Of a DNA stretch of 64,000 bases, positions 33,840-35,111 are shown one piece after another. Each line of letters begins with the position of its first letter. Position 1 is the stretch's first letter. Source of the stretch: Bacteroidales bacterium (GTDB taxonomy: Bacteria; Bacteroidota; Bacteroidia; Bacteroidales; P3); NCBI GenBank assembly GCA_017934545.1, contig JAGBJI010000010.1, forward strand, positions 32,396 through 96,395, in the 5' to 3' direction. The notes under the pieces are model-generated. The model ran no database searches. It saw only the letters and a program-made list of their open reading frames with translations, and had not been told where the DNA came from. The position numbers and the translations under genes are program-made.

Positions 33840-35111
33840 ATGACAGCTATTGTAGGGACAATAAACAGAAGAGGTGTTGCTTTTGCAGCAGATAGTGCAG
33901 CGACACATACAATATCTTCAAAGCATAAGATTACAAATCATGCAAACAAGATATTTGAGTTGTCGAAATACCATCCTGTCGGGGTTGCATTATGTGGAAA
34001 CCTTGACTTCTTAGGACTTCCATGGGAAGATATAATTAAGTTGTTTAGATCAAAGATGAAGCGTAAAGGTTATAAAACATTGAAGGAGTATTCTGACGCA
34101 TTCTTTATCTTTGTCCGGACAAACATCATGTCTGGTTTAAAAAACGACCAAAAACGAAATCTGGAAGTTATAGTAAATGGTTTTCTCAACGAGATTGTGA
34201 ATCTCTCAAGAAATGACCTTGAAGAAAAGAAGTTAGAGGTCAAAGATGAAACGATGTTTCCTATGTTCATAGAGAGACTTGACTATTTTGAAGATATGTA
34301 TAAGGGGAAAGAAACAAATAGGGATTTTTCCTCATACACATTAGATAAATTCAAGGTGTACTCTGATGAAATTGTTAGTAGGCTATTAAGTCCATTAACT
34401 ACCAATCCATTATGTCCTATAGAATTTAAAGAAAAGTTTGTTCAGTCTTTGTATTATATTATTATTTCCCAAATCCATGTTTATTTAGTTAATACAGAAT
34501 TGATATTCTGGGGATATGGTGATGATGAAATATTTCCTTCGTATTATTCCTATGTTATCAGTTCTGCATTTGATGATAGAATTAAAATTACCCTTAAGAG
34601 CCAATATGCGGTCTCTAATGATAGAATAGCCTGTGTTGAGCCATTTGCCCAAACAGATGTAGCAAATACTGTTGTAAGGGGAATCGATGCCGATTTACGA
34701 ATGAAATTCTATGAAAGTTATAATGCATCAATTACTATGTTTCGTGATGAAATTGTCTCAAAGTTAGAGTTGGCTGGTGCACCAATGAAACTAAAAGAGG
34801 TTTTGACATCGTTAGATATGAATTTATATACAAATACTTTTGTTGATGGTATGGAAGCATATATCCAAGACAATTATATACAGAAACTTGTTGATACTGT
34901 AGCATATCTTAGTAAAGAAGATCTTGCCGATATGGCAGAGAGTCTTGTGCGTATGACATACTTAAAGAGACGAATAACTTCAGAAGAAGAAAGTGTCGGA
35001 GGTCCTGTGGATGTTGCGGTTATAACTAAAGGAGATGGTTTTATTTGGCTTAAATGTAAGCACTATTTTGAAGCTGAACTAAATCCACATTTTTTTAACG
35101 TTCTAAAATGA
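33840..35111 (+). CDS. Proteasome-beta/HslV-like Thr-nucleophile (Ntn) hydrolase with a large internal insertion
   Basis: Met-Thr start (MTAIVGT...). Asp at position 17 counted from Thr1 (FAADSAAT). Lys in NKIFEL. ELIFWGYGDD strand. C-terminal SVGGPVDVAVITKGDGFIWL parallels the archaeal beta-subunit [19 protein letters not shown] (recalled from memory). 423 aa, versus about 200 for a beta subunit. Confidence 0.55.
   Translation: MTAIVGTINRRGVAFAADSAATHTISSKHKITNHANKIFELSKYHPVGVALCGNLDFLGLPWEDIIKLFRSKMKRKGYKTLKEYSDAFFIFVRTNIMSGLKNDQKRNLEVIVNGFLNEIVNLSRNDLEEKKLEVKDETMFPMFIERLDYFEDMYKGKETNRDFSSYTLDKFKVYSDEIVSRLLSPLTTNPLCPIEFKEKFVQSLYYIIISQIHVYLVNTELIFWGYGDDEIFPSYYSYVISSAFDDRIKITLKSQYAVSNDRIACVEPFAQTDVANTVVRGIDADLRMKFYESYNASITMFRDEIVSKLELAGAPMKLKEVLTSLDMNLYTNTFVDGMEAYIQDNYIQKLVDTVAYLSKEDLADMAESLVRMTYLKRRITSEEESVGGPVDVAVITKGDGFIWLKCKHYFEAELNPHFFNVLK

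Follow-up and report, generated by a model that had tools for sequence, protein, structure and literature searches.

A mobile two-gene cassette with a proteasome-like threonine hydrolase, an anti-phage candidate from its genomic context

The window, i.e., the whole stretch of 64,000 nucleotides analysed here (Bacteroidales bacterium, assembly GCA_017934545.1, contig JAGBJI010000010.1), contains at 33840-35274 a cassette of two genes. The product of the large gene is, by its sequence and predicted structure, a proteasome-family N-terminal nucleophile (Ntn) hydrolase with intact active-site residues. The small gene, called the partner hereafter, follows it directly. Enzyme and partner form a conserved, translationally coupled two-gene operon, and the cassette is horizontally mobile cargo found in defence islands and in accessory slots of prophages. 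A role in phage defence is proposed as a candidate function.

Enzyme and partner

The large open reading frame (ORF), with the sequence MTAIVGTINRRGVAFAADSAAT, opens at the first start codon past the upstream stop. A first-pass annotation, made from the DNA letters, had described a 423-aa product beginning with Met-Thr, with Asp at position 17 and a Lys about 3 residues beyond canonical Lys33; ORF and residues are as it stated. Counted from Thr1, Asp is residue 17 (D18 of the ORF) and Lys is residue 36 (K37, within NKIFEL), i.e., canonical Lys33 plus 3. The AT-richness noticed by eye is real as well: the guanine plus cytosine (GC) content is 0.32-0.35 over 33750-35500, a stretch that takes in the gene and 160 nt on its 3' side, vs. 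0.42-0.46 in the flanks, thus the cassette is about 10 points lower than the DNA around it.

Taken alone, the window protein gives nothing significant in searches of Pfam, NCBIfam, PADLOC or the PDB sequences. An AlphaFold2 model built from 44 relatives (mean predicted local distance difference test, pLDDT, 82.9; predicted template modelling score, pTM, 0.78) consists, in this order, of six strands, helices, four strands, helices and two strands. The pLDDT is below 50 near residues 21-33 and 383-387, close to the putative active site. When the model is compared with PDB by Foldseek, the top 50 matches all belong to the proteasome family (Anbu, 20S beta and alpha; probability 0.9-1.0) and the best one is Anbu (5nyw, E 3.8e-4). 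The template modelling (TM) scores are 0.44-0.56 when normalised to the target and 0.23-0.30 when normalised to the query. In the viral structure library the best match is a phage «proteasome beta» (E 8e-5). PF00227 (Pfam Proteasome) is touched by 33 out of 50 diverse relatives at E <= 1 (best value 1.7e-4, below the gathering threshold), and any other Pfam family by at most 4 of the 50. Because of the structural matches, the collective matches to PF00227 and the invariant catalytic residues described below, the protein is assigned to the proteasome family (Pfam PF00227/MEROPS T1); the fold proposed at first sight is thus retained.

Conservation was counted over 263 full-length relatives. Thr2, on whose conservation among homologs the initial proposal leaned, is present in 259 of them and replaced by Ser in 3. 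Thr-to-Ser is the sole variation at position 2, as expected of a nucleophile. Asp18 is found in all 263 sequences and Lys37 in 262. G225 and G227 are found in 263 each. Towards the C-terminus the conserved positions are E384 (259), S/T385 (258), G387 and G388 (259 each) and D391 (261). Position 48, the candidate for Gly47 of the oxyanion hole, is G in 234 relatives and A or S in 29. The Thr1/Asp/Lys active site is under strong purifying selection. An HslV-style Met-Thr start without propeptide, as had been suggested, fits the Met-Thr or Met-Ser start of 253 relatives. Thr as the second residue makes a protein a substrate of methionine aminopeptidase; Thr1 would thus be exposed through removal of Met, in the manner of HslV. 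The chemistry is presumably that of a protease rather than that of a ligase.

The parallel with the Thermoplasma 20S beta subunit, noted at first sight, exists: EESVGGPVDVAVITKGDGFIWL aligns with residues 166-187 of that subunit when the family profile is searched against the PDB sequences (hmmsearch, E 0.11) and when profiles are aligned by hhalign (probability 74%, E 2.9e-5). Of its Ser-Gly-Gly equivalent, the two glycines are conserved (G387 and G388); Ser169 of the 20S beta set (Ser129/Asp166/Ser169/Gly170) pairs with the invariant V386 in the hhalign alignment, and S/T385 of the family lies one residue before. The extra mass is helical, as had been expected, but it is split into two insertions (roughly residues 81-215 and 284-355) and is not a single insertion of about 200 aa. 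Both are variable, i.e., the mean majority fraction is 0.29 for insertion 1 and 0.30 for insertion 2, and 0.51-0.76 for the core (same 263 relatives).

The family is large. At least 4,910 full-length relatives were retrieved by a word-indexed search, nearly all of them of 400-450 aa; 5,635 clusters at 50% identity are matched with E <= 1e-3 and 2,782 with E <= 1e-30. Loci are found in Bacteroidota, Firmicutes, Proteobacteria, Nitrospirota, Acidobacteriota, Verrucomicrobiota, Chloroflexota, Cyanobacteria, Saccharibacteria, Methanosaeta and Hydrothermarchaeota, and in phages. The name in every public source is «hypothetical» or «uncharacterized». PHROG 5990 (function not assigned) matches the enzyme over its full length (E 4.6e-93). 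Moreover, 22 new proteasome homologs have been described by Fuchs, Alva and Lupas (Bioinformatics 2021; PMC8665760), among them a «PMI» group, i.e., Proteasome homologs with Multiple Insertions. PMI-4 (representative HDY66466.1; 501 sequences at nr90) has long insertions after H1/H2 and between H3/H4, and is spread over Proteobacteria, Firmicutes, Actinobacteria, Bacteroidetes, PVC, Cyanobacteria, other bacteria, Euryarchaeota and phages. It has no assigned function, and no genomic context suggestive of function was found for any of the new homologs; insertions at these sites are expected to hinder the assembly of rings and double rings (PMC8665760). The present family is very probably PMI-4, judged by the described insertion sites and taxonomic spread. 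The protein family is thus already known: with the PHROG match and the fit to PMI-4, the view of the enzyme as an undescribed gene must be abandoned. A literature search gave no functional study of the family and no paper tying a proteasome-fold protein to phage defence.

The enzyme is not an orphan either, contrary to what had first been written. Of 85 loci, taken from 80 species genomes, from four records of phages or satellites and from the window itself, 81 have an ORF of 42-78 aa, almost always with an ATG, that starts a few bases from the enzyme stop. The distance from enzyme stop to partner start is at most 20 nt, or the two overlap, in 72 of these 81 loci. When the partner is defined strictly (ATG, 40-80 aa, start between -25 and +60), it is present in 76 out of 84 loci vs. 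50 out of 645 background ORFs (7.8%; background being the other ORFs of at least 250 aa in the same loci; binomial p 9e-75). In the window, the partner is the 51-aa ORF which the first-pass annotation had singled out for a co-occurrence check; it is annotated as a 51-aa gene in public assemblies. The partner is called by independent gene callers and by PGAP in several assemblies and is missed by RefSeq in E. coli, where the ORFs lie unannotated (L103, 12264-12413, 49 aa; L104, 12207-12311, 34 aa). In strain 120899 the cassette with the 49-aa ORF spans L103, 10957-12413, and its enzyme is WP_000123148.1. The equivalent partner of E. faecium is annotated (L106, 1305-1475, 56 aa). This systematic under-annotation may explain why no conserved context was seen in earlier surveys.

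The partner diverges faster than the enzyme: in an example comparison of pairs it has 41% identity where the enzymes share 60-69%. Several clades can be distinguished. Relatedness is evident between A and C (hhalign 87%), weak for B and not detectable for D, the clade of the window; the idea of a single small-protein family thus holds in part only. All clades have a polar, apparently disordered N-terminal half followed by an amphipathic C-terminal helix (residues 24-48 in the window partner, pLDDT about 90 in the AlphaFold model). The conserved N-terminal motifs are clade-specific: YxSIxEFEKxYFP, DVLSAFK and M(I/M)TIYSE.

Only L039, L066, L074 and L078 have no credible partner. They belong to one subclade, and upon inspection their enzymes are also without the C-terminal tail RKHYFxPELNxxFF, which is conserved elsewhere. 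This co-loss of tail and partner is a single event and hints at an interaction of the tail with the partner. Enzyme and partner would interact physically, and the partner would have a regulatory role. In two of these loci (L074, 1136-4531; L078, 7599-11018) the enzyme is the last gene of a tight operon, after a WYL-WCX regulator (BrxR/CapW type) and a protein of about 395 aa; the latter has no Pfam or PADLOC match. A conserved larger neighbour is ruled out, since no cluster of neighbours of at least 90 aa is found in more than 9 of the 85 loci.

Setting in the window and in other genomes

The cassette of the window is set in the cargo region of an integrative mobilizable element, because a backbone with relaxase, MobC, DUF3987 and integrase lies to its right (Table 1). 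In L007 and L061, too, the cassette is flanked by homologues of these backbone genes. AbiEi/AbiEii are upstream and a type I restriction-modification (R-M) locus is downstream, in agreement with what had first been read there; likewise, no HslU or other AAA+ neighbour, no alpha-subunit neighbour and no Anbu-type neighbour occurs in the window. The DUF6155 gene, for which co-occurrence with the enzyme had been suggested, recurs at none of the other loci and is absent from the other Bacteroidales contexts. It was thus rejected as a third component and, being specific to the window context, it is either a cargo gene of its own or linked to AbiE.

Table 1. Coordinates of the features in the window, with strand and remarks.
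Feature	Coordinates	Strand	Remarks
DUF6155 protein, 182 aa	33136..33684		Between AbiEii and cassette
Upstream intergenic region, 155 nt	33685..33839	+	The GC drop from 0.46 to 0.35 falls here
Imperfect direct repeat, left copy	33784..33836	.	Repeat family D1, 31 nt at 81% identity
Proteasome-like Ntn (Thr1) hydrolase gene, large subunit of the cassette	33840..35111	+	423-aa ORF, AlphaFold2 model, Foldseek, PF00227, PHROG 5990
Catalytic N-terminal segment	33843..33950	+	Codons of Thr2 (33843-33845), Asp18 (33891-33893) and Lys37 (33948-33950)
Helical insertion 1, about residues 81-215, after H1/H2	34080..34484	+	AlphaFold2 helices 81-129, 136-155, 168-187, 196-209
Helical insertion 2, about residues 284-355, between H3 and H4	34689..34904	+	AlphaFold2 helices 284-311, 316-323, 327-355
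Conserved C-terminal block: EESVGGPVDVAVITKGDGF strand pair, then tail KHYFxxELNxxFF	34986..35108	+	Alignment to 20S beta 166-187
Small partner gene, 51 aa (ATG 35119) or 53 aa (TTG 35113)	35119..35274	+	Equivalent ORF in 81 of 85 loci
Imperfect direct repeat, right copy	35399..35461	.	Within hsdS-like fragment 35314-35763 (-)
hsdS pieces	35314-35763, 35655-36044, 38364-38978, 38902-40119	both	
DUF1016/YhcG PD-(D/E)XK nuclease	37184-38362		PADLOC candidate PDC-S02, nested in R-M locus
Abi_C-domain protein	40132-40929		Nested in R-M locus
hsdM	40941-42599		
hsdR	42605-45769		
Mobilizable-element backbone	46627-54834	-	Relaxase, MobC/NikA-like, DUF6371 zinc-ribbon, DUF3987, two HTH_17, tyrosine integrase (Arm-DNA-binding domain)

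The promoter of the cassette itself probably lies within the upstream intergenic region, which is the candidate for it. A sigma-70 scan gave 7 sites vs. 9.8 expected and 0 terminators, such a scan being uninformative for Bacteroidota. The low-GC cassette is bracketed by the D1 repeat pair, whose match of 31 nt is ungapped and reaches about 50 nt if gaps are allowed. On the minus strand the right copy encodes ..YAKIDANIEEN.. of the HsdS C-terminus, and the left copy is an apparent degenerate remnant. Because the right repeat lies in an hsdS fragment and the left one resembles its remnant, the cassette may have landed in hsdS-derived sequence of the R-M locus; the significance of the repeat is uncertain. 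It must be noticed that the type I R-M locus (35314-45769) is organised as a shufflon and has a tyrosine recombinase inside it (36380-37126).

In gut and rumen Bacteroidales the cassette occurs in six independent contexts, with defence-type genes within one to three genes of it. These contexts comprise: (i) AbiE, the type I R-M shufflon and Abi_C in the window; (ii) Schlafen/AlbA_2 (PADLOC PDC-S31), with or without ThsB-TIR and a nucleotide-modification cluster; (iii) DpnII R-M and a TIR protein on Mob_Pre/DUF3987 elements; (iv) a cI-like HTH protein, a TIR-like protein, HNH and AlbA_2/HATPase_c_4 on a DUF3987 element; (v) a PtuA/PDC-M01A ATPase (Septu-like) and an OLD-type TOPRIM protein. Upstream of one Bacteroidales copy (L088, 1164-5695) lie a ThsB-like TIR protein, Nmad2, an HMUDK-like helicase-associated protein, a radical SAM protein and a 495-aa protein; this cluster resembles a separate module for nucleotide modification or defence.

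In E. coli, 22 out of 5,426 complete genomes carry the enzyme, all in lambdoid prophages. Two variants are found. In the first, the cassette has antiterminator Q on one side and the methylase/lysis genes on the other, runs antisense to the late operon, and is adjoined by Hok. In the second, it follows directly a cI-type repressor and is co-oriented with it, i.e., it occupies the slot of rexAB in lambda. In Enterococcus faecium, where the gene is seen on more than 975 contigs, it directly follows the endolysin and closes several prophages that differ from one another. In the Streptococcus prophage Javan85 it likewise comes last, after the endolysin; in Streptococcus phage satellites it is at the accessory end, adjoining RelBE. 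In Providencia and Stenotrophomonas phages the cassette abuts the lysis cassette. A phage structural or prohead-protease role was considered and rejected: most loci are outside phages, and the phage copies other than that of a Porphyromonas phage (see below) occupy moron slots.

The flanks in the 80 species genomes were annotated in bulk, which gave counts per family. R-M methylases, PADLOC candidate families and integrases are among the genes found in these flanks.

Phage defence and its alternatives

The preferred interpretation, inferred from context, is that of an autonomous mobile two-gene Thr-protease cassette acting against phages or by abortive infection; a rough probability of 0.4 is given to it. 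The same probability applies to its fuller form, in which the cassette would be the first anti-phage (abortive-infection-type) system with a proteasome-fold Thr protease, insertions and partner would make up a phage-sensing surface, and prophages, satellites and mobilizable elements would spread it, including to E. coli, E. faecium, Proteus and Morganella.

The mechanism would be as follows. Methionine aminopeptidase would expose Thr1, so that the enzyme would be born mature, its triad being completed by Asp17 and Lys36. The insertions on the alpha-beta-beta-alpha core would probably block self-compartmentalisation in a barrel. A mature enzyme without barrel would have to be controlled in another way, most obviously by the small partner: it may bind the enzyme, probably near the conserved C-terminal tail, and either silence the pre-matured protease, as inhibitor or pseudosubstrate, or confer specificity on it. 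Phage infection would lift or redirect this control. The freed Thr-protease would then cleave a particular protein of host or phage, and phage production would be blocked, in an abortive-infection or toxin-antitoxin-like manner. The cassette would thus be cargo that guards the mobile element or prophage together with the host.

Several observations weigh against this proposal. (i) The immediate flanks in the 80 species genomes are heterogeneous and include PGK, GidA, ALAD and RNR. (ii) Clear defence genes are a minority of these flanks. (iii) Enzyme, partner and E. coli homolog have no family match in PADLOC-DB v2.0.0; as had been anticipated, the gene matches none of the named or candidate defence systems modelled there. 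(iv) The sequence likeness to canonical proteasome subunits is local and remains below the Pfam gathering threshold. (v) The gene order, large then small (toxin-first), is unusual for type II toxin-antitoxin pairs. (vi) In the Porphyromonas phage phage022a_WW2931 (L001, 6001-7437) the cassette is inside the head-tail morphogenesis module, beside a methyltransferase, where a moron would not typically be expected. No major capsid protein is annotated in the L001 stretch around the cassette.

The mixed neighbours just mentioned, housekeeping genes among them, would also suit a plain addiction (toxin-antitoxin) or selfish module without any phage role, or a niche housekeeping protease carried on mobile DNA. 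The two-gene unit with its small and quickly evolving second gene, the adjoining RelBE and Hok pairs, and the absence of informative context for any new homolog in the earlier survey (PMC8665760) are what such a module would give. Nevertheless, in four phyla the cassette is repeatedly found in slots of lysogenic conversion and in defence islands, and its sporadic spread in E. coli (see above) argues against housekeeping. Moreover, many toxin-antitoxin modules found in such places prove to be abortive-infection systems, thus addiction overlaps with the favoured defence role. As a separate explanation it is held to be unlikely.

It is less probable still that the cassette serves the element or the phage itself, as a counter-defence protease or as a regulator of the lysis-lysogeny decision or of induction. 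Such a service would account for the cassette of virion-isolated phages (Providencia, Stenotrophomonas), for the PHROG match, for the loci adjoining cI-type repressors and for the Porphyromonas phage, in which the neighbouring methyltransferase is a typical anti-restriction gene. On the contrary, most loci in the 80 species genomes are outside recognisable prophages, and the lambdoid copies, being antisense to the late operon or with the repressor, fit expression in the lysogen and not lytic expression. Mobilizable elements that are not phages also carry the cassette, with R-M, Abi and TIR genes around it, and the regulator linked to the variant enzyme (WYL) is of the type that controls defence operons.

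A connectase-like enzyme, i.e., a sequence-specific peptide ligase or processing enzyme with the partner as its substrate, from which a peptide (signal, tag or toxin) would be released or transferred, is likewise rather improbable. Connectase, a monomeric proteasome homolog with helical insertions, is a highly specific ligase (PMC8665760). The insertions of the present enzyme are at sites predicted to hinder ring assembly, the clade-specific N-terminal motifs of the partner could be recognition sites, and translational coupling implies that partner and enzyme are expressed together. However, the hallmarks of connectase (S3/S4 insertion, no H1/H2) are not seen in the enzyme model; the partner motifs differ between clades, a variation that would be unexpected in a substrate when the active site of its enzyme is invariant; and one subclade has no partner at all.

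Finally, that the proteasome likeness is due to fold convergence or misprediction and the protein is no Ntn hydrolase is hardly credible: the absence of Pfam, NCBIfam or PDB match for the single sequence, the low query-normalised TM-scores and the low pLDDT near the putative active site are outweighed by 50 out of 50 top structural matches from one family (probability about 1, with the target-normalised scores given above), by PF00227 as the sole repeatedly matched Pfam family, by the invariant Thr1/Asp17/Lys33-type residues with position 2 changing only to Ser, and by local alignments that land at homologous positions of the beta subunit.

The cassette is thus a strong anti-phage candidate, and only a candidate; since E. 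coli and E. faecium have native versions of it, it is cheap to test. Four points appear to be new: (i) the functional unit, defined as the enzyme plus a hidden partner; (ii) the co-variation of tail and partner; (iii) the WYL-linked variant; (iv) the consistent setting in defence islands and lysogenic conversion. Proteasome-family enzymes are central to antigen processing and, in eukaryotes and archaea, to protein turnover, and their recently described bacterial homologs have no known role. A testable hypothesis is now available for one of the largest orphan families of proteasome homologs, and native versions occur in hosts that are tractable and of clinical relevance (E. coli lambdoid prophages, E. 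faecium prophages, Streptococcus satellites). Should the cassette prove to be an immune module, it would bring a new enzyme fold to bacterial immunity and the first physiological function of a proteasome homolog that bears insertions. If no defence role is borne out, the conserved pair of enzyme and partner still gives a handle on the function of these proteins.

Comparison with known systems

PMI-4 shares with the enzyme the Ntn fold, the Thr1/Asp17/Lys33-type residues, the absence of propeptide and the sites of insertion. Both are large families without AAA+ partner or assigned function and with a similar spread over phyla. They differ in that neither a small partner gene nor a setting as defence or prophage cargo is described for PMI-4 (PMC8665760).

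HslV (ClpQ) has the same Met-Thr start without propeptide and the same core fold. Its N-terminal strand (MT.IV....G.V..A.D) aligns, though the similarity is weak (hhalign probability 11%). HslV is an insertion-free protein of about 175 aa that assembles into a double hexamer and needs the AAA+ unfoldase HslU, encoded next to it. In contrast, the cassette enzyme has 423 aa and two insertions, and no AAA+ neighbour is found in any surveyed locus.

Anbu and the 20S beta subunits are the best structural matches (Anbu 5nyw, E 3.8e-4; 20S beta, target-normalised TM-score up to 0.56), and the C-terminal strand pair aligns to Thermoplasma beta 166-187. On the other hand, the genes of the Anbu operon (ATP-grasp, alpha-E, transglutaminase) are absent from the window and from the surveyed loci. 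The cassette enzyme is without alpha subunit or propeptide, and its insertions are at the helices that make the ring and ring-ring contacts.

Connectase, likewise a proteasome homolog, functions outside a barrel, and its helical insertions give high substrate specificity. It differs by an insertion between S3 and S4, by the lack of H1/H2, by its restriction to methanogens and by the lack of a small partner. In the cassette enzyme, S3 (20-25) and S4 (28-33) are adjacent and the helices follow S6, as in beta subunits.

In type II toxin-antitoxin modules a small labile protein neutralises the product of a co-transcribed gene. The cassette has such a two-gene architecture, with coupling and a fast-evolving small gene, though in toxin-first order; neutralisation, lability and toxicity are putative.

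Lastly, several defence modules are based on proteases: Lit, CalpL-type Lon, Craspase and the gasdermin-activating proteases. To our knowledge, they have metallo-, serine- or cysteine-protease folds and none has the proteasome (Ntn, Thr1) fold. These modules are compact, are carried on prophages or in defence islands, and use a site-specific protease effector controlled by a second component.

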